Assembly: GCA_035556715.1 (NCBI GenBank)
Contig: DATMER010000074.1
Coordinates: 3,737-67,736, forward strand
Origin: Thermoanaerobaculia bacterium
GTDB lineage: Bacteria; Acidobacteriota; Thermoanaerobaculia; Multivoradales; UBA5704
Direction of reading: 5' to 3'
Length of the DNA: 64,000 nt
Below are positions 25,152 to 58,027 of this stretch, piece by piece; the first letter of the stretch is position 1, and each line of letters starts with the position of its first letter. The notes under the pieces are model-generated. The model did no database searches, was not told where the DNA came from, and saw nothing but the letters and a program-made list of their open reading frames with translations. The translations under genes were made by a program, and so were the position numbers.

Positions 25152-25176
25152 GGGGTGGAAAGTCTAGCACCCGGAA

Positions 25177-25343
25177 CCTCACCCCCTGTCCCCCTCTCCC
25201 GTCTCCCACCCCTCCCCCGCCGGGAGAGGGGGAACGTATCTGGGGCCGCCGTGACCGAACGCGAGGCACGACAGCCTCAGTCACGTCCCCCCTCTCCCGG
25301 GGTCGGGCCGGCGGGAGACGGGAGAGGGGGACAGGGGGTGAGG
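25177..25343. repeat. Palindromic repeat family, full copy C
   Basis: CCTCACCCCCTGTCCCCCTCTCCC...GGGAGAGGGGGAACG...CCCCCCTCTCCCGGGG...GGGAGAGGGGGACAGGGGGTGAGG in the divergent region between the NicO-like gene and smc. Confidence 0.7.
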
Positions 25344-25460
25344 TCTCCACTCCCCTACCACATCTTGTGGTCATCTTCCAGACTCGCCCACAGCTTGTAG
25401 GACGGTCCGGCCGTCTGATATCCTGCCCCGCACGGTCGAAACCGCCAGGGCACATCACAC

Positions 25461-36634: not shown

Positions 36635-38163
36635 AGATCACCCGATTTGTCCTCTCGCGATTTGCCCTCTCGATAACCGCCCTGGCCCTGCTGACGGGCG
36701 CGGCCTCCGCGCAGGAGGCCAAACCGAAGCAGACCCCTCCCCCGCCCAAGCCGGCCAAGGAGATCCGCTTCCCTGCCTTTGAAGAGAAGACGCTCGCCAA
36801 CGGGCTGCGCCTGGTGGTCATCGAGCAGCACGAGACGCCGTCGCTCTCCGCGCAGCTGCTCTTCCCGGGCGGCAAGGTCCACGCTCCCGCCGGCAAGGCG
36901 GGTCTGGCCGACGCCACCGCCGCTCTGGTCCGGGAAGGGACCACGGCGCGCTCGGCGCAGCAGATCGCCCAGACCATCGATTCGGTGGGCGGTGTGCTGA
37001 CCACGGGCGCGAGCCTGGAGTCGGGCTTCGCCGGGGTGCGCGTGACCTCGGACCAGCTCGACCTGGCGCTCGACCTCCTCTCGGACGTGATCCTGCGCCC
37101 GAGCTTCCCGGCCGAGGAGCTGGAGCGCTGGCGCAACCAGACGCTGAGCGGCCTCCAGATCCAGCAGACGGACCCCGAGTACATCGCGGACGCGGCCTTC
37201 GTGCAGGCCGTCTACGGCGGCCACCCCTACGGGCAGCCGGCCACGGGCACGCCGGAGTCGGTCCAGGGCCTGACGCGGGACGACCTCGCCGCCTTCCACC
37301 GCCGGCAGTACGTGCCCAACGAGTCGATCCTGGCGATCGTCGGCGACGTCAAGGCGGCCGACGCATTCGCCAAGGCGGAGCGCTTCTTCGGCGCCTGGAA
37401 GCGGGGCGAGGAGTCGCGCATCCCCGCGGTCAAGCCAGCGCAGGCGCAGCGCCGGATCGTCATCATCGACAAGCCCGACGCCGTGCAGACGCAGATCCGC
37501 GTCGGCCAGATCGCGATCGGCTACCGCGACCCCGACCACTTCGCCGCGCAGGTCTACGATTCCGTGGTGGGATCGAGCTCCAACTCGCGCCTGTATGAGG
37601 AGGTCCGGCGCAAGCGGGGTTTGTCTTACGGGGCCTTTACGGACCTCCGGCTGCCATCCGAGCCGGGCTGGTTCCTGGCGAACACGTTCACGAAGACCGA
37701 GTCCACGGCCGAGGCCCTGGGGCTGGTGCTGGAGGTGCTCGAAGGCATGGGCAAGACGCCTGTCCCGGCCGAGGAGCTGGAGACGCGCAAGACCTACCTG
37801 ACCGGCGCGTTCCCCCTGGAGATCGAGACGCCGGACGGCATCGCAGGCAAGGTGCTGGAGGCCATGAAGTTCGGCTATGGCCGCGAGTACCTGGAGAGCT
37901 ACCGCGACAAGCTGGGCGCGGTGACTGCCGAGCAGGTGAAGAGCTTCGCCGGGCGCAGGCTCCAGCCGGACCGGATGCTGGTCGTCCTGGTGGGCAACGC
38001 CAAGGCCTTCGCCGCGGACGTCGAGAAGCGCTTCGGAAAAGCGGAGACGATCCCCATCGGCGAGGTGGACCTGCTGCAGCCCGGGCTGCGGAAGAGCCCT
38101 CACCCCCCGGCCCCCTCTCCCGCCTCCCCATCTCCCTCCCCGGGAGAGGGGGAGACTGAATAG
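36631..38163 (+). CDS. M16 family peptidase, non-catalytic partner subunit
   Basis: M16 fold (LANGLRLVVIE...) without HxxEH; start overlaps the upstream gene (ATGA). C-terminal PHPPAPSPASPSPSPGEGETE tail is encoded by palindromic repeat D. Confidence 0.8.
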   Translation: MKITRFVLSRFALSITALALLTGAASAQEAKPKQTPPPPKPAKEIRFPAFEEKTLANGLRLVVIEQHETPSLSAQLLFPGGKVHAPAGKAGLADATAALVREGTTARSAQQIAQTIDSVGGVLTTGASLESGFAGVRVTSDQLDLALDLLSDVILRPSFPAEELERWRNQTLSGLQIQQTDPEYIADAAFVQAVYGGHPYGQPATGTPESVQGLTRDDLAAFHRRQYVPNESILAIVGDVKAADAFAKAERFFGAWKRGEESRIPAVKPAQAQRRIVIIDKPDAVQTQIRVGQIAIGYRDPDHFAAQVYDSVVGSSSNSRLYEEVRRKRGLSYGAFTDLRLPSEPGWFLANTFTKTESTAEALGLVLEVLEGMGKTPVPAEELETRKTYLTGAFPLEIETPDGIAGKVLEAMKFGYGREYLESYRDKLGAVTAEQVKSFAGRRLQPDRMLVVLVGNAKAFAADVEKRFGKAETIPIGEVDLLQPGLRKSPHPPAPSPASPSPSPGEGETE

Positions 38164-38253
38164 CAGCTTTCTCGCCTCAAGAGAGGGTGCGCGGGGGCGC
38201 CCCTCTCCCGGCGAGGGTGGTCGGGGAGGCGGGAGAGGGGACGGGGGTGAGGG
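38097..38253. repeat. Palindromic repeat family, full copy D
   Basis: CCCTCACCCCCCGGCCCCCTCTCCC...GGGAGAGGGGACGGGGGTGAGGG between the convergent M16 and ubiB genes. Confidence 0.7.
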
Positions 38254-44806: not shown

Positions 44807-44832
44807 GGGCGGGAGGATATCGCGAGGGCGGA

Positions 44833-44998
44833 CCTCACCCCCTGTCCCCCTCTCCCATCTCCCACCCGGCCCCCGCCGGGAGAGGGGGAACGTGGCTGAG
44901 GCCATCTTGCCTTCGCTCAGGCACGACTGCCACAGATACGTCCCCCCTCTCCCGGGGAGGGTAGGGCGGGAGATGGGAGAGGGGGACAGGGGGTGAGG
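44833..44998. repeat. Palindromic repeat family, full copy E
   Basis: Near-identical to copy C (CCTCACCCCCTGTCCCCCTCTCCCATCTCCC...GGGAGAGGGGGACAGGGGGTGAGG). Confidence 0.7.
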
Positions 44999-45002
44999 TC
45001 TC

Positions 45003-48713: not shown

Positions 48714-49520
48714 ATGACCCGATTCCGTTGGGTATTGGCCTTCGTGCTGGCCGCCGGTTGCGCGACCGCTCCCCCGCCTCCGAAGCCCGCGGCTCTGCCT
48801 GCTCCTGGCACCGAAGACCTCTGGGCAGTCTACGCCGCGGCAGTGCGGACGGCGCAATACCCCGTCCAGGACCACATCTCCCGCGATCTGGTGCCGATCC
48901 TCCGCACCAATCCGGAGCTGCGTTGGGACCAGGGGCGTGTCCTGATGGCCACCTGGACGAAGAAGAAGTACTACGAGGGCAAGGTCGGCCAGCCCTACAC
49001 GCTTCCCAAAGGCGTCACCGTCTGGCTGACCGCCGTGCCCTATCTCCAGGAGGACTGCCGCGGCTGGGGCCTTCCTGCCGAGAAGCTTCCCCTCCGCATT
49101 GCCCAGTCGCTGGGCCTGCCGCCGCCGTCCGAGGGAGGCAACGACGCCTTCGTCCAGATGTGGGTCGATCCCCGCACGTTCTTCCGTCCCTGCTCCGATC
49201 CCGAGATCACCGACCAGGAGTGCCAGGTTTATCTCGACGGTGGGCCGGCCGACCGGACCGGCGATTGTCCGTGGTCCGCCGATCAAGTCTCCGGCGCCTT
49301 CGTCCGCGTCTCGGACAGCCACCTCGACTGGATGTGCGGCAACTGGAAGAGCACCTACACCGGGGACCCGATGACCAGCTATCCGTGGACCGCTCTCGGC
49401 TACACCTTCGACTGGGGGGACCTCCTCCACCCCTGGGGCCAGAGCGAGTATGTGGTGCCGCCGGGAACGACGGTGTGGATCGACAAGAAGATCTTCACGG
49501 CGGAGGAGTACTGCCGGTAG
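48714..49520 (+). CDS. Lipoprotein of unknown function
   Basis: MTRFRWVLAFVLAAGCATAPP lipobox; several Cys; its 3' end is duplicated downstream at 50195-50340. Confidence 0.6.
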   Translation: MTRFRWVLAFVLAAGCATAPPPPKPAALPAPGTEDLWAVYAAAVRTAQYPVQDHISRDLVPILRTNPELRWDQGRVLMATWTKKKYYEGKVGQPYTLPKGVTVWLTAVPYLQEDCRGWGLPAEKLPLRIAQSLGLPPPSEGGNDAFVQMWVDPRTFFRPCSDPEITDQECQVYLDGGPADRTGDCPWSADQVSGAFVRVSDSHLDWMCGNWKSTYTGDPMTSYPWTALGYTFDWGDLLHPWGQSEYVVPPGTTVWIDKKIFTAEEYCR

Positions 49521-49525
49521 TGCTT

Positions 49526-49822
49526 CTAAGATCCGAGGCGATACTTCCAATAGTCTGGATGGCGGCTGTGGTGCTTGACCACTAGGATGCGTATGTCGTC
49601 GCCTTCCTGGCGGTAGTAGATGCCATAAGGAAAACGCCGCATCACCAAGCGTCGCACATCATCCTCGACGACCCGCCAGCGATAGGGGGCGGCCAGGATC
49701 GCAGCAATGGCAGCGTCGAAATCGCGCAGGAAGCGACTGCCGAGCCCTGGCTCCCGGCCTTCGTAGAACCGGACGGCCTCAACCAACTCTCCCTCAGCGT
49801 CCGGATGGTAGGTCAGCTTCAT
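49526..49822 (-). CDS. relE: RelE/ParE-family toxin
   Basis: 98 aa; RelE/ParE-like conserved basic residues RRFPYGIYYRQEGDDIRILVVKHHSRHP. Confidence 0.8.
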   Translation of the reverse strand: MKLTYHPDAEGELVEAVRFYEGREPGLGSRFLRDFDAAIAAILAAPYRWRVVEDDVRRLVMRRFPYGIYYRQEGDDIRILVVKHHSRHPDYWKYRLGS

Positions 49823-50052
49823 CGGAGAGCTCGGCGCGCAGCCTCCATGACCTGCTCGTGAGACCGGCCCTCGACCGCCCCCGTAGCCAGCTCTCGATCC
49901 CGCCTCTTAGCCTGATCGACGGCTTCTCGCTCCTCAGCGCCGCCGCCAACTCCAGGCTCTTCATCGATGCTCTGCCAGAGCGCTTGCGCCAAGTCAATCC
50001 GATCTGACAGCGGTAGCGCCAGCACCTTCTGGGTAAGCTCTTCGTTCGACAT
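49819..50052 (-). CDS. Addiction-module antitoxin (TIGR02574-like)
   Basis: MSNEELTQKVLALPLSDRIDLAQALWQSIDEE; its stop overlaps the relE start. The upstream in-frame extension to 50154 is a duplicated 5' fragment of the DUF3782 gene. Confidence 0.6.
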   Translation of the reverse strand: MSNEELTQKVLALPLSDRIDLAQALWQSIDEEPGVGGGAEEREAVDQAKRRDRELATGAVEGRSHEQVMEAARRALR

Positions 50053-50194
50053 GGCTTCCAAAGTAAGAGGTCCCTGAGCTTGAGTCAAGCGAGCCTGTCT
50101 AGCACCAGACCTGAGCTCTTGGTCGGTCACGGAATCAATGTTCTCCCAAAGCACACCCGCAGTGACATCCTATCACGCGACGTGACCATCTCAC

Positions 50195-50340
50195 CTGGCA
50201 GCGCTCGGCTACACCTTTGACTGGGGGATGTCCTCCATCCTAAAGGACAGAGCGAGTACGTGGTGCCGCCGGGAACGACTGTGTGGATCGAGAAGATCTT
50301 CACGGCAGAGAGTACTGCGGAGGAGAAACCCAGACACCCT
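50195..50340 (+). pseudogene. Decayed duplicate of the 3' end of lipoprotein gene 48714..49520
   Basis: ~85% nucleotide identity to 49385-49520, with two 3-nt deletions; encodes ...VVPPGTTVWIEKIFTAE. Confidence 0.6.
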
Positions 50341-50351
50341 GACTCCGAAGC

Positions 50352-50398
50352 CGCGCGGGCGGGGGCTTCCTCTCCCGCGAAGCGGGGGAGGATAGAGG
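50352..50398. repeat. Left inverted repeat (IR-L) of STAND cassette
   Basis: GGGCTTCCTCTCCCGCGAAGCGGGGGAGGATAGAGGAGGGGGTC is ~42/47 identical to the inverse complement of 53286-53332. Confidence 0.6.
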
Positions 50399-50408
50399 AG
50401 GGGGTCTT

Positions 50409-50804
50409 CTACCCGTTCCCCACCCGGTTCCCGCTCCCCGCAATCTGGACGTTCGTGTTGCCGTCCCCGGTGATGTTCGCCGTCTGCTGGATCGAGACCC
50501 CCGGCCGGACCTCTTCCACGAGGCGAGCCAACTCGGTGAGAAGGTCGGGATCCGCCGCGAGCCGCTCCTCCAGGAACAGGCGCACGGCCGCCTGGGCATC
50601 CGGCTTCTCCGGCGCGGCCTCCAGCTTGGTCAGGGCCTTCTCCTCGGCGGGTCCGGTGAAACGCTGCTTGAGTGTCTGATACAGCTTGCCGGCTCCCCCG
50701 ACGGTCGCCTCCCCGATCTTCTTCGCACCGGCCTTGGCAGCTTCGACGAGATAGGGGGATAGTAAGGTTACGACGGCTGTTGCGACGGTCGCAGGATCGA
50801 TCAT
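50409..50804 (-). CDS. Small hypothetical protein sharing a terminal motif with the adjacent STAND ATPase
   Basis: 131 aa. C-terminal ITGDGNTNVQIAGSGNRVGNG resembles the STAND N-terminal SGEQNVNVQIQGDNNVVLLG. Confidence 0.45.
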   Translation of the reverse strand: MIDPATVATAVVTLLSPYLVEAAKAGAKKIGEATVGGAGKLYQTLKQRFTGPAEEKALTKLEAAPEKPDAQAAVRLFLEERLAADPDLLTELARLVEEVRPGVSIQQTANITGDGNTNVQIAGSGNRVGNG

Positions 50805-50839
50805 GAGGGGCTCCCTGGGTCAGGAGAAGGTTCGAAAGG

Positions 50840-53242
50840 CTACGGCGATTCGGGCGGTTGGATCTTCTGAAAGGTAGAGTCGATTGCCTCGATCAGCTCG
50901 GAATCGGGTTGCCGATCGTTCTGCTCCGAGAGTCTTAGATACAAGGAGGTCATCTTCGCCATTCCTTCCTGCAAAGTCGCCGGGCGGGCTAAGAAAAAAT
51001 GCAGATGCATTCGGACAGCCTCCTCCGAAAACTGCAGCGCCTTACCAAAATCACCGAACTCCTGTAGGCAACAGGCTAAATTGTAAAGAGAGAAGGCAAG
51101 ACTCAGCCTGAACTCTTCCAGGCCAGTTTGCGAGAGATCACGAAATACATCCACTGCCTCTGCCGCCACCTCTAGTGCCTCTTCGCGACGGCCAAGATCG
51201 CTCAGAATGCCTGACAGGATGGTGAGCGACTTTCCAAGGTCCGGACGGAACGCGTCCGGATGAGACTGCGAAAGCTCGCGATATACATCCACCGCCTCCT
51301 GCACTGCCTTGAGAGCCTCTTTATGATGGTCAAGAAGGCGCAGCCAGAGAGCCAGATTGCTGAGCGATGCCGCAAGCTGCAAACGAAATACGCCGGGAGA
51401 GGACTGCGAAAGCTCACGACATACATCCACCGCCGCCTGCACTGCCTCCAGCGCCTCTTTATAACGCCTAAGATCACCCAGACAGCTAGACAGGTTGATG
51501 AGCGACTTCCCAAGATCCGGAAGGAATGCGTCTGGGCGGGACTGTGCAAGCTCGCGCAAGATGGCCACCGACTCCTGAACAGCCTCCAAGGCCTCTTTGT
51601 GACGGCCGAAACCGCTCAGACGGTTGGACAGGGTAATTAGCGAAAGCGCCAAGTGCGGACGAGACGTGTCCTGCGGAAGCTCGCGATTTGCATCCACCGC
51701 CTCCTGCGCCAAATGCAGAGCCTCTTCGCTACGGCCAAGAGCGTTCAGACGGATGGACAGGTTGTTGATGAACCCGGCCAGCTCTTCCTTGTCACCTTCC
51801 ACCCGGAGCCTTTCCACCACCGCTGCCGTGAGCCTTGCGGCGACCTCGCGCAAGACCAGTGTCTTCTCCGGGAGCTGATTGACCAGCCTCAACAGAGCTT
51901 GCGTGTCTCCGACTCTTTCCGCCAGGCAATCGAGCCATTCCGCGGGCCTCCCATCCACGCCGCCGAAGTCCTGGGCCATCCGGATGACCACTGCGGTGAT
52001 GCGCTCCGGCGCGATGGCGGCCGCGCGGGCGACCGACTCCCTGGCCTTGCCGGGATCGCCGTCGCCGAGGGCGAGGAGGATTGCGGCCTCCCCTACGATG
52101 TCCGGAAGGATTGGTGCGACGTCCGCCCCTGCCCTGGGGAGCACCGCGTGCAGGATCTTGTAGATCTCTGGAGGATCACCGACTCTAACGTAGCGCAACG
52201 CTCTCGCCTCGACCTCGATGGCTTCTTCCGCCTGATCGCGCGTGAGCCCCTGGCAGAGGGTCGCATACGCCGCCATGTGGCAGACCAGGGACCGTGAGTG
52301 TTGCAGGCGGCTCTCGCCGATCCGCCCGATCCGGTTCAGCTCGTGCCGCCGGGCGACCTCGAAGGCTAGGTCGGACCTATTCAAGGTGAGGACGTGCGCG
52401 AAGCCCTCCCTTGCCGCAATCAAGCCGGCCATCAAAAGGAAAAGCGGCTCGCCGCCCCACTCCAGTTTTGCCAGGTCGCGGTCGAACCCACGGCCCTCCT
52501 CCGGCAGCCTCAGATCGCTCCCCGCCTTACTGAATACCTCTTCGAGGATGTTGCGCCGGTCCTCGACAGGCGCGAGAGGAGAGAGCACGTAAGGGCCATC
52601 GGCAGGATCGAGCTTGCGCTGGACGGCGGTATCGCCCCACCCTCCGCTCTGGAAGGCTTCCGCCCACCAGCCGCCTTTGGGATCGGCGTACCGCTCGAGG
52701 AGCAGGATACGGAGCTTGCCGCCAGCCGGCGGTGAGCTGGCGAGGTCGTCCAGCCAATCCCGCAGCCAGGGGAGTCGGGCAGCCGCGTAGTCCACTACGG
52801 CGAGGGTGGGGCGCGGCAGGCTGGCCGTGACGGATTCCAGGGACGGGGTGGCCTTCACGAAACCGGCGCTCCATCCCCGTAGGACTGCCTCCTCGCAGAG
52901 CTCCAGGGCGAGGCGTGTCTTGCCGCCTCCTCCAGGCGCCGTGACCACGCGGATGGACAGGTCCGGATCACCATCCATCCAGGACCAGAGGTCGGCAAGC
53001 TCCCGCTCCCGTCCCACGAGGGGGACCGCCATGGCGTAGGGGCTGAGGATCTCGGCGGCCTCGCCTGCCTCAACGGGGGAAGAGAGGGCTTCCCTCCGGC
53101 GGCCCCGGTAGAGCGTGAGGTCGAGACGGGACCTACCGAGGAGGACGACGTTGTTGTCGCCCTGGATCTGCACGTTGACGTTCTGCTCCCCGGAGAGGCT
53201 CGCGCTCTGGGAACGGCTCGGCGCGTCGGGGTCGGAGGGCAT
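50840..53242 (-). CDS. STAND-type P-loop NTPase with C-terminal TPR array
   Basis: Walker A VVTAPGGGGKTRLALEL; hhhhD Walker B LAVVD; at least 8 TPR units, several encoded by near-identical 126-bp nucleotide repeats. Confidence 0.75.
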   Translation of the reverse strand: MPSDPDAPSRSQSASLSGEQNVNVQIQGDNNVVLLGRSRLDLTLYRGRRREALSSPVEAGEAAEILSPYAMAVPLVGRERELADLWSWMDGDPDLSIRVVTAPGGGGKTRLALELCEEAVLRGWSAGFVKATPSLESVTASLPRPTLAVVDYAAARLPWLRDWLDDLASSPPAGGKLRILLLERYADPKGGWWAEAFQSGGWGDTAVQRKLDPADGPYVLSPLAPVEDRRNILEEVFSKAGSDLRLPEEGRGFDRDLAKLEWGGEPLFLLMAGLIAAREGFAHVLTLNRSDLAFEVARRHELNRIGRIGESRLQHSRSLVCHMAAYATLCQGLTRDQAEEAIEVEARALRYVRVGDPPEIYKILHAVLPRAGADVAPILPDIVGEAAILLALGDGDPGKARESVARAAAIAPERITAVVIRMAQDFGGVDGRPAEWLDCLAERVGDTQALLRLVNQLPEKTLVLREVAARLTAAVVERLRVEGDKEELAGFINNLSIRLNALGRSEEALHLAQEAVDANRELPQDTSRPHLALSLITLSNRLSGFGRHKEALEAVQESVAILRELAQSRPDAFLPDLGKSLINLSSCLGDLRRYKEALEAVQAAVDVCRELSQSSPGVFRLQLAASLSNLALWLRLLDHHKEALKAVQEAVDVYRELSQSHPDAFRPDLGKSLTILSGILSDLGRREEALEVAAEAVDVFRDLSQTGLEEFRLSLAFSLYNLACCLQEFGDFGKALQFSEEAVRMHLHFFLARPATLQEGMAKMTSLYLRLSEQNDRQPDSELIEAIDSTFQKIQPPESP

Positions 53243-53285
53243 GGATTCGGCTCGTCGGAGGTTTCTCTCAAGATATCACGCGCAG

Positions 53286-53332
53286 ATGTGCGGACCCCCT
53301 CCCCTGCCCTCCCCCGCTGCGCGGGAGAGGGA
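53286..53332. repeat. Right inverted repeat (IR-R) of STAND cassette / partial palindromic-family copy F
   Basis: GACCCCCTCCCCTGCCCTCCCCCGCTGCGCGGGAGAGGGAGCC; followed at 53336-53353 by GGAGGAGTACTGCCGGTGG, a copy of the lipoprotein 3' end. Confidence 0.6.
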
Positions 53333-53351
53333 GCCCGGAGGAGTACTGCCG

Positions 53352-53625
53352 GTGGCGCGAGAGATTGTGAGCGGCAGGCGCGCGGCGCACGCCCTGAGAG
53401 GGCGGCTTCCGCCCTTTAAAGGGCGGTGTCCGCCCTCTGAGGGACGATGCTCGCCCTTTGAGGGACGATGCCCGCCCTCTGAGGGGCAGCCTTCGCCCTT
53501 TGAGGGACGATGTCCGCCCTTCGAGGGACGGTCTCCGCCCTTCGAGGGGCGATGCCCGCCCTTTGAGGGATGGCATCCGCCCTTTGAAGGCGACGGCCGC
53601 CCCGGAAGGGCGAGCGCCTCCGCAT
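53352..53625. repeat. Tandem array of ~13 x 21-bp direct repeats
   Basis: Unit consensus CGCCCTYYGAGGGACGATGYC, each containing a CCCT-N3-AGGG mini-palindrome. ORFs on both strands here show heptad periodicity and are repeat artefacts. Confidence 0.75.
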
Positions 53626-53667: not shown

Positions 53668-54249
53668 CTAGAAGACGCGAGGCTGGAAGCTCTCGGGTAC
53701 ATCGAGCTGGAACTGGTCGTCGTGGATCCGGGCGAAGTAGAAGCCTTCCTGGAGCACCTTCTCCTGCAGCTTGCCAGGCGCGTGCACCGCGGCGATGATT
53801 CCGTAGACCTTCTTGTCCTTGTAGATGGGGAAGAAGTCGCGGAACTCCTGGAGAATCCTGTTCATCTGGTCGAGAGCCTCTTCGCGGAGGTGGCTCTTGA
53901 CCTCGACGACGAACATGTCGTCGCTGAAGTTGGAGAAGGCGAGCACGTCAACCTCCATGGAGTGGCCGTTGCGCTTGACCCGGACGCTGGGAGCGATCAC
54001 TTCCATGCCGAAGCGCTGGCTCAGGATCTTGGCCATGGATGGGAGAGCCAGGCCTTCCGTGAAGCTGCCGAACTTGTCGCTCAGGCCGCCGATCTGCCGC
54101 TTCAGCTCCCGCGTCTCCTCCCGTGCCAGCCGAGCGTACTCCTGCGCGGCCTCACGAAGCACTCGCTCGGTCTCCCGCTGGGACTCAGTCAGCTCGGCAT
54201 GCTTGACTGCCAGCGAAGCCATCAGGTCTCTGAGCTCTTGGTCGGTCAT
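53668..54249 (-). CDS. DUF3782-family PD-(D/E)xK-like protein
   Basis: N-terminal coiled coil (TESQRETERVLREAAQEYARL); EVDVLAFSN ... VVEVKSHL resembles a PD-(D/E)xK core. Start at MTDQELR (54249); the upstream extension to 54303 is shared with the 50093-50150 duplicate. Confidence 0.55.
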   Translation of the reverse strand: MTDQELRDLMASLAVKHAELTESQRETERVLREAAQEYARLAREETRELKRQIGGLSDKFGSFTEGLALPSMAKILSQRFGMEVIAPSVRVKRNGHSMEVDVLAFSNFSDDMFVVEVKSHLREEALDQMNRILQEFRDFFPIYKDKKVYGIIAAVHAPGKLQEKVLQEGFYFARIHDDQFQLDVPESFQPRVF

Positions 54250-54308
54250 GGAATCAATGTTCTCCCGAAGCGCGCCCGCCACTCGATGAGAACATCGTAA
54301 CACGGAAC

Positions 54309-56450: not shown

Positions 56451-56584
56451 CCCTCACCCCCTGGCCCCCTCTCCCATCGCACTCCCGCCCTCCCGGGAGA
56501 GGGGGAACCTTTCTTATGCCTCCTCTCTTTTCCCCCTCTCCCGGTGGAAGGGAGGGGATGGGAGAGGGGGCCAGGGGGTGAGGG
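56451..56584. repeat. Palindromic repeat family, full copy G
   Basis: CCCTCACCCCCTGGCCCCCTCTCCC...GGGAGAGGGGGCCAGGGGGTGAGGGG between the divergent phosphatase and M28 genes. Confidence 0.7.
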
Positions 56585-57924: not shown

Positions 57925-57996
57925 CCCTCACCCCCGTCCCCTCTCCCGGGGCGGGTGTGCTTGGGAGGAGCGGGAGAGGGGGCCGGGGGGTGAGGG
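57925..57996. repeat. Palindromic repeat family, short copy H
   Basis: CCCTCACCCCCGTCCCCTCTCCCGGGG...GGGAGAGGGGGCCGGGGGGTGAGGG (arms only, ~72 bp). Confidence 0.65.
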
Positions 57997-58027
57997 TCTG
58001 TTCCAAACCGCCCCCCGCCCCTGTCTC

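Follow-up and report, generated by a model that had tools for sequence, protein, structure and literature searches.

Two co-directional genes enclosed by an inverted repeat, in a 64-kb window of contig DATMER010000074.1, raise the question of whether they form a signalling module and, if so, how its two products are coupled and whether it moves as a unit. The window, by which we mean the entire stretch of DNA analysed, derives from the metagenome-assembled genome (MAG) of an uncultured, soil-type member of the Thermoanaerobaculia (Acidobacteriota). One gene encodes an 800-aa NTPase with tetratricopeptide repeats (TPR), referred to here as the receptor, and the other a 131-aa small protein, referred to as the effector. 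We consider it likely that this operon encodes a receptor resembling the NOD-like receptors (NLRs) and a Bell-like cell-death effector, coupled through a shared amyloid-type signalling motif. The initial annotation of this DNA had proposed a two-component module of the STAND class (signal transduction ATPases with numerous domains), joined by shared termini that it took for effector-associated adaptors and mobilised as a unit. Our analysis retains the two-component STAND module and the shared termini, and replaces both the name given to the coupling device and the claim of mobility.

A shared terminal motif probably couples receptor and effector

The open reading frame (ORF) listing agrees with the initial annotation that the repeat encloses exactly two genes, both on the minus strand (Table 1). 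They are adjacent and collinear, with a spacer of 35 nt, as is typical of NLR/Bell pairs; GGGAG lies 8 nt 5' of the effector ATG, and in the related loci L002, L012, and L013 the two genes overlap by 1–4 nt. The NCBI record of the receptor, HWM92125.1, is 672 aa long and starts 128 residues late relative to the 800-aa ORF, so that both the signalling motif and the Walker A motif are lost from it; other gene callers give the 800-aa product.

The resemblance between the C-terminus of the effector and the N-terminus of the receptor, which had been noticed in the initial annotation, proved real and, at 25 residues, longer than stated there. Local (Smith–Waterman, SW) alignment of the last 45 effector residues against the first 100 receptor residues recovered a segment with 12 of 25 positions identical and a score of 58, where shuffles averaged 24.4 (sd 5.0; z 6.7) and none of 2000 reached the observed value. 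The effector motif contains four G, four N, three Q, two V, and three I (G/N/Q 11 of 25) and no K, P, or L, and the receptor motif contains two G, four N, four Q, four V, and one I, with no K or P and a single L. Both thus show the composition of bacterial amyloid signalling sequences (BASS), in which Q, N, G, V, and I are enriched and K, P, and L depleted. In the monomer models, both motifs are predicted to be disordered, with a predicted local distance difference test score (pLDDT) below 50.

The within-pair match recurred in 11 of 12 independent related loci (recorded for L001, L002, L005, L007, L009, L011, L012, L013, L014, and L016), spanning at least eight independent lineages with pair-specific variants. 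At L001, L002, and L007, close effector homologues, which share 76–91% identity, adjoin receptor homologues, and both window motifs are present. The more distant pairs were reached from two directions, L005, L009, and L011 from the effector side and L012, L013, L014, and L016 independently from the receptor side; a narrower alignment used as query returned only four metagenome loci. In each of these distant pairs, a small protein of 107–148 aa adjoins a co-directional NTPase, and its tail matches the NTPase N-terminus. Cognate SW scores were 61 for L009, 61 for L011, and 103 for L005 (0 of 2000 shuffles in each case), and shuffles equalled the cognate match in 0 of 1000 trials for L012 and L013 and in 1 of 1000 for L014 and L016. 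The two partners also vary together: 'VIQAGRDV' occurs on both proteins of L011 and 'GSGAIAQG.GA.AVG..G.Y.GG' on both proteins of L005, with non-cognate combinations scoring 25–39 against 61–103 for cognate ones. Directly observed here are the arrangement of the parts, the matching motif, and the fact that this match recurs and co-varies. A match confined to this genome and a small ORF without homologues elsewhere, the two outcomes that the initial annotation had regarded as fatal to its proposal, were both looked for and neither was found. The small partner and STAND sensor that it envisaged, coupled by a shared terminus, thus recur as a pair, and homologues of the small protein adjoin STAND-type NTPases in the loci compared, the exceptions being L008 and L015.

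The effector has Bell-like features

The AlphaFold2 (AF2) model of the effector, built from 15 sequences (pLDDT 73), predicts five helices at residues 4–25, 37–48, 52–63, 68–84, and 86–99, followed by a disordered tail at residues 106–131 (pLDDT <50). Helix 1 (MIDPATVATAVVTLLSPYL) is hydrophobic, and residue 3 is acidic. M1, D3, P17, and Y18 are the conserved positions, D3 being retained in at least 90% of sequences. By its length, its five predicted helices, its hydrophobic helix 1, and D3, the protein is Bell-like as modelled, and it is probably membrane-active.

The family is large. A profile search of 1.84 billion cluster representatives (clusters at 50% identity) recovered 2355 effector relatives at E <=1e-3, mostly 120–150 aa long, whose tails carry either the same motif (consensus Q.aNiTGD.N...QIsGSGN.V) or other G/N/Q-rich motifs. 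In a few relatives, the domain instead lies N-terminal to NACHT-FGE-sulfatase or Trypsin-nSTAND1, or is linked to TCAD2 or TCAD9. The family is without a model in Pfam, NCBIfam, and PADLOC, a PDB sequence search with the effector profile returned only noise, and tblastn of the effector and of two Bell motifs from Table S2 of Dyrka et al. (2020) against plasmids gave no match. The label 'pseudopilin PulG', attached by JGI to two homologues, was considered and rejected, since the prepilin cleavage motif is absent; it most likely reflects the hydrophobic N-terminal helix.

The receptor is a divergent STAND NTPase with TPR repeats

Near its N-terminus, the receptor carries the motif and then a conserved linker (L.LTLYRGRR); these are followed by a STAND-type P-loop NTPase, a helical domain, and finally the TPR region. 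Its Pfam matches are strong for the repeats (TPR_12, 1.4e-25; TPR_10, 1.8e-23; also TPR_2 and TPR_8) and weak for AAA_16 (0.007), and the Walker A and B motifs are intact, in keeping with the STAND ATPase-TPR protein of the initial annotation. Among 42 aligned receptor homologues, G105, G107, K108, T109, R110, and D151 are invariant, and the homologues match nSTAND_NTPase5 and AAA_16, in all cases below threshold. The AF2 model of residues 1–470 has a pLDDT of 84.8, with residues 1–38 predicted to be disordered (pLDDT <50). Searched with Foldseek against the PDB, the NTPase model found the STAND protein EfAvs5 as its best match (4e-6), followed by ORC/Cdc6, NRC3, MalT, and SAMD9; plant NLRs were among the matches as well. 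When the receptor alignment was used for a profile search of the PDB, TPR proteins dominated the results. On this evidence, the receptor is a divergent, nSTAND5-like STAND NTPase with TPR repeats.

Nearly all of 67 receptor homologues start with G..N.VVQI.GDGN.V followed by the linker L.LTRY..RR. They come from Acidobacteriota, Roseiarcus, Methylocystis, Magnetococcales, and Chloroflexi metagenome bins. The TPR units at 51129-51768 share 63–73% DNA identity with one another, and receptor relatives span 761–822 aa; variation in repeat number could diversify the sensor. Upstream of the receptor, a leader at 53243-53290 (GCGTGATATCTTGAGAGAAACCT.CGACGAGCCGAA.CCATG) is kept in the window, L001, and L002, and the same leader also stands 5' of a 661-aa gene in L007; a role as promoter or as regulatory leader is possible.

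Comparison with known amyloid-signalling systems

The closest precedent is the NLR/Bell pair (Dyrka et al. 2020, bioRxiv 10.1101/2020.01.06.895854), in which an effector of 120–140 aa carries an ~100-aa helical Bell domain, its first helix hydrophobic and its residue 2 or 3 acidic, and has a ~25-residue G/N/Q-rich motif in common with the N-terminal end of the collinear NTPase-TPR/WD receptor encoded next to it; intergenic gaps are very short, and 'all-in-one' Bell fusions occur occasionally. The window pair resembles these systems in its collinear neighbours with a tiny gap or overlap, in its effector size and helix 1, in the motif common to the effector C-terminus and receptor N-terminus, in its NTPase-TPR receptor, and in the direct fusion of the effector domain to an NTPase in some members of the window family. 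Its five predicted helices within about 100 residues, acidic position 3, and total length of 131 aa all agree with the Bell description. The receptor motif is also similar to that of a Calothrix NIES-2098 NLR/Bell pair listed without a BASS class in Table S2 of that study (SW 54; 0 of 500 shuffles), and the L011 variant resembles BASS1 (1 of 500 shuffles against a single representative). The gene order in the window is receptor then effector, and both orders occur among relatives. The window pair departs from the published set in three respects: its NTPase lies outside Pfam NB-ARC and NACHT, the homologues being nSTAND5-like below threshold; its motif did not match the single representatives of BASS1-10 with which it was compared; and its host belongs to the Thermoanaerobaculia. 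The 2020 survey found Bell domains in 2 of 91 Acidobacteriota genomes, with none in 4 Thermoanaerobaculia or 2 Holophagae, and no BASS pairs anywhere in the phylum (Dyrka et al. 2020, bioRxiv 10.1101/2020.01.06.895854).

Bab/Agp of Escherichia coli (BASS11), an amyloid-dependent antiphage abortive-infection system (Ibarlosa et al. 2024, bioRxiv 10.1101/2024.11.07.622273), likewise consists of two adjacent genes, with a large TPR sensor whose N-terminal motif is the same as the C-terminal amyloid motif of a small helical effector. In Bab, four helices cup the hydrophobic helix 1, and the mechanism was established there by experiment, whereas it is assumed for the window pair. The Bab 'Babybell' domain is shorter (~80 aa), its motif belongs to a distinct family, and the window effector has no detectable sequence or Foldseek match to anything in the PDB copy searched. 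Fungal NWD2/HET-S and related NLR/HeLo amyloid signalosomes, as described in the literature, offer the same logic: receptor oligomers nucleate amyloid, template the effector tail, and release an N-terminal membrane-inserting helix. They differ in being eukaryotic, with unrelated HeLo and HRAM sequences and a NACHT-WD40 NLR. Avs proteins and other bacterial STAND defence NTPases resemble the receptor in that a repeat-based sensor lies C-terminal to the STAND NTPase core, EfAvs5 being the structural match noted above; the window receptor differs in having no fused effector domain, with a separate effector apparently recruited through a short motif, and in being unmatched by the PADLOC Avs models.

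By analogy with NWD2/HET-S, BASS/Bell, and Bab/Agp, a ligand, most likely a phage component, would bind the TPR array and promote NTP-dependent oligomerization of the receptor, and the N-terminal motifs clustered in this way would adopt a cross-beta fold. The resulting nucleus could then template the same fold onto the effector tails, and polymerization would free helix 1 of the effector for membrane insertion, killing the infected cell in a form of abortive infection.

Several observations weigh against this interpretation. Amyloid formation, toxicity, and the phage trigger are carried over from NWD2/HET-S, BASS/Bell, and Bab/Agp. Neither the NB-ARC nor the NACHT Pfam model matches the receptor, strong as its TPR part is; the fold is STAND/AAA+ and the architecture NLR-like, yet receptors of this kind would have been missed by the Dyrka et al. 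screen, which called for one of those two Pfam domains. Among the single BASS1-10 representatives of Table S2, the window motif found no match, its best score being to BASS10 (6 of 500 shuffles). The effector model had no Foldseek match to the PDB at E <1, its top results being BAK and BFK with TM-scores of ~0.2. PADLOC-DB v2.0, a check proposed in the initial annotation, matched no catalogued system at the locus: its sole result was a P-loop-level similarity to DrmD (E = 0.0024), and the small protein gave none. Finally, the 2-kb contig L008 carries an effector with no visible receptor, and in L015 a second receptor is preceded by a TPR fragment and by no more than a degraded effector-like stretch.

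Alternative explanations of the gene pair

The mechanism favoured in the initial annotation was that the shared termini are adaptor modules of the effector-associated domain (EAD) type, making a folded, non-amyloid homotypic contact between the STAND NTPase and its partner. Kaur and co-workers are said to have described such adaptors, in 2020, from NTP-dependent conflict systems; EADs are folded helical domains of about 80–100 aa. The fusions of small-domain relatives to TCAD2, TCAD9, Trypsin-nSTAND1, and NACHT-FGE-sulfatase, all components of conflict systems, are congenial to this idea, as are the sub-threshold matches of receptor homologues to nSTAND_NTPase5, a 'novel STAND' model in Pfam. 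The shared segment, however, spans only about 25 residues, is rich in G, N, and Q, and has predicted disorder on both partners. An EAD pair would carry the same folded domain on each protein, yet the receptor contains nothing equivalent to the small protein's helical domain, and the EAD and EACC models of NCBIfam and Pfam match neither protein. We therefore regard adaptor coupling as unlikely, and the shared piece fits BASS/Bell signalling instead. The direction of the interaction is a separate matter, as motif matching indicates that two proteins interact and not which acts on which. The small protein might be a regulator whose tail caps or competes with the receptor motif and keeps the receptor inactive, the activity of the receptor itself being the effector function; the conserved linker L.LTRY..RR, which has no assigned role, and the presence of two small genes for one receptor in L001 would suit such an arrangement. 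Yet beyond the motif, NTPase, and TPR region, the receptor contains no recognizable enzymatic effector domain, the small domain occupies the usual N-terminal effector position in all-in-one NACHT proteins, and the combination of a hydrophobic first helix with an acidic second or third residue marks the membrane-targeting HeLo/Bell/MLKL class, making the regulatory role very unlikely.

It is also conceivable that the motif similarity has no function and is a by-product of gene conversion, duplication, or low-complexity composition, given that the motifs are simple in composition and the locus has a history of duplication. Against this, the in-register nucleotide identity of the two window motifs is 53%, so the match does not reflect a recent DNA duplication; the similarity recurs across the independent lineages with its pair-specific variants; and the motif is the most conserved N-terminal feature over the 67 receptor homologues. 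This explanation is accordingly extremely improbable, and amyloid-type coupling of an NLR-like receptor to a Bell-like effector remains the reading that we prefer.

What the pair adds to existing knowledge is modest: its host group, an NTPase that is neither NB-ARC nor NACHT, and a motif unmatched by the BASS1-10 representatives, in what is otherwise an ordinary NLR/Bell-type pair. It extends such systems to the Acidobacteriota (Thermoanaerobaculia, with relatives in Holophagales), a phylum in which the founding survey had no such pairs, and adds to the evidence that they reach beyond multicellular bacteria, without overturning current understanding. The nSTAND5-like receptor clade escapes screens based on NB-ARC and NACHT, and because the large effector family lacks a model in Pfam, NCBIfam, or PADLOC, these modules go unseen by present annotation and defence-finder pipelines. 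Since the motif co-varies pair by pair from lineage to lineage, it also offers a natural experiment on the specificity of amyloid templating.

Table 1. Positions in the window of the receptor–effector pair, its predicted domains and motifs, and the elements that flank it.
Feature	Position	Strand	Remarks
A', orphan native 3' end of lipoprotein gene A	50201-50359	+	includes the stop and 16 nt beyond it; outside the system
Left inverted-repeat arm	50363-50406		44 nt; begins 3 nt after the effector stop codon
Effector gene	50409-50804	-	131 aa; ORF; HWM92124.1, NCBI label 'hypothetical protein'
Effector-side motif, residues 104-128	50421-50495	-	SIQQTANITGDGNTNVQIAGSGNRV; aligned with the receptor N-terminus
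Bell-like five-helix domain (predicted), effector residues 1-100	50505-50804	-	AF2; disordered motif tail C-terminal of the domain
Receptor gene	50840-53242	-	800 aa; ORF; NTPase-TPR protein
TPR sensor region, about residues 470-750	50993-51835	-	Pfam TPR_12, TPR_10, TPR_2, TPR_8
Five 138-nt (46-aa) TPR units	51129-51768	-	direct repeats D2/D3; Tandem Repeats Finder period 138
Walker A (P-loop) APGGGGKT, residues 102-109	52916-52939	-	Walker B aspartate is D151
Receptor-side motif, residues 9-33	53144-53218	-	SRSQSASLSGEQNVNVQIQGDNNVV; aligned with the effector tail
Right inverted-repeat arm	53293-53336		44 nt; 51 nt 5' of the receptor start codon
A'', 23 nt repeating the final codons and stop codon of full-length gene A (49501-49523)	53336-53358	+	D13, 91% identity; abuts the right arm

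The inverted repeat as a probable local intergenic element

The inverted repeat reported in the initial annotation is real, with arms of 44 rather than 47 nt and coordinates that shift by 4–11 nt. A repeat search found the arms, which lie 2886 nt apart, to be complementary at 39 of 44 positions (89%). This match scores 48.1 bits, whereas the best among 200 first-order random sequences with matched composition reached 30.2. Each arm holds its own 11-bp hairpin, that of the left arm being CCTCTCCCGCG-AAG-CGGGGGAGG. Read in the sense of the genes, arm F comes first, then the receptor and the effector, and arm R last. In L001, another Thermoanaerobaculia MAG, the order is effector 1, R, 63 nt of the 3' end of gene A, F, receptor, effector 2, R, and gene A, so that the left-arm element follows both effector genes as it does in the window; the right arm is kept upstream of the receptor in L001 and at the start of the L002 contig. 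L002 has F and, where R would be, an ORF for a 55-aa antitoxin remnant. L007, on an 8.4-Mb Holophagales contig, has no arms; there, the effector gene is preceded by genes for a 661-aa protein and for a 1194-aa receptor whose motif is internal, and is followed by a second receptor gene.

Whether the 3-kb segment is a mobile cassette (a transposon, a MITE-derived composite of the miniature inverted-repeat transposable element type, or an integron-like unit) with the 44-nt repeats as its recombination ends is a fair question, since the repeat lies far above chance and brackets exactly two genes, both arms are kept in L001, fragments of the gene A 3' end lie outside both arms (50201-50359 and 53336-53358) with an analogous fragment in L001, and the content of the locus differs among relatives. 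However, the ORFs and Pfam show no transposase, integrase, or recombinase in or beside the segment; the arms have no other copy in the 64-kb window or, outside this locus, in the fetched loci; and in all four related genomes (L001, L002, L003, and L007) the pair sits at the same locus, with a PP2C/HAMP gene on one side and lipoprotein gene A/ABC2-peptidase M1 on the other. L007 and L002 keep the genes without one or both arms, and flanking repeats are absent from six more distant pairs. The gene A fragments are asymmetric and give no target-site duplication: the right one abuts its arm, whereas the left one is the complete 3' end of the gene, with the matching segment about 45 nt away from the arm (50306-50320 versus 50363). 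The marks of a transposon, IS, or MITE (a transposase or dispersed copies of the ends, a target-site duplication, and different insertion sites in different genomes) are absent here. We consider the cassette quite unlikely, and the claim that the pair is mobilised as a unit is not borne out; in our reading, the inverted repeat is a local palindromic intergenic element, neither a part of the signalling system nor a transposon end.

Two more specific proposals were rejected. An insertion spanning 50311-53335 with a 13-nt target-site duplication, GGAGGAGTACTGC, conflicts with A', which runs on through its own stop to 50359 and is homologous to gene A of the relatives. As intrinsic terminators the arms lack a U-tract, and their hairpin energies are usual for their composition (z -1.1 to -1.4); they could conceivably be U-less terminators of the kind found in high-GC bacteria. 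The region has no match in Rfam.

Flanks and local rearrangement

The orphan fragment A' is 82–84% identical to the 3' end of gene A in L001, L002, L003, and L007, and the direct repeats D4, D9, and D15 within it match 49392-49505; the 63-nt gene A fragment of L001 lies just upstream of an arm, as A'' does in the window. The simplest reading of the history of the locus is tandem duplication, deletion, and accretion of units composed of F, receptor, effector, R, and the gene A 3' end, forming a variable immune hotspot, with no transposition. An assembly chimera in the MAG is an unlikely source of the duplicated junctions, because the repeated segments are only 85–93% identical. The site after gene A might instead be a dedicated accretion site at which the arms and gene A fragments are scars or substrates of site-specific or hairpin-directed recombination. 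If so, it would be an integron-like cassette system for immune receptors without a local integrase, duplicating, swapping, and stacking NLR/Bell modules and small cargo such as a ParE pair, but we judge this highly improbable.

The ParE pair in question, a ParE toxin and an 'Unstab_antitox' antitoxin, lies at 49526-50154 (minus strand) between the full-length gene A, whose adjoining segment is 49392-49523, and A'. The upstream part of the antitoxin ORF (50111-50160) is a 50-nt, 92%-identical copy of the 5' end of a DUF3782 gene (54230-54279), which itself spans 53668-54303. Together with the antitoxin remnant of L002, the ParE pair of the window looks like the accretion of alternative cargoes at one hotspot. 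In L007 (1445-7004 and 7398-9757), two receptors flank one effector gene. The upstream one, of 1194 aa, carries 'NVQILGDNNVV' internally, behind an extra N-terminal region of ~230 aa, and the 661-aa P-loop protein has the receptor's 5' leader and first codons; this arrangement suggests domain shuffling through recombination among paralogues. At L014 (1-2743 and 5996-6958), a distant receptor–effector pair has a type ISP restriction-modification gene (N6_Mtase, Type_ISP_C) on one side and a phage-type integrase on the other; in contrast to the window, this setting is that of a defence island and of mobile DNA.

Two further repeat families occur in the window. Between A'' and the 3' end of the DUF3782 gene, a tandem array at 53382-53602 repeats a partly palindromic 21-nt unit, CCGCCCTTTGAGGGACGATGC, about 10 times. 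A dispersed intergenic family of ~170-nt palindromes, resembling MITEs or repetitive extragenic palindromic (REP) elements, is found at 1780-1946, 25176-25344, 38094-38252, 44831-45002, 56452-56583, and 57938-57998. Its copies are 70–85% identical, have outer arms CCCTCACCCCC..CCCCTCTCCCG / CGGGAGAGGGG..GGGGGTGAGGG, and match nothing in Rfam; the arms flanking the receptor–effector pair share composition alone with this family, with no BLAST match at E <=1e-3. Spurious ORFs across the dispersed copies read 'PLAPSP...GEGE'.

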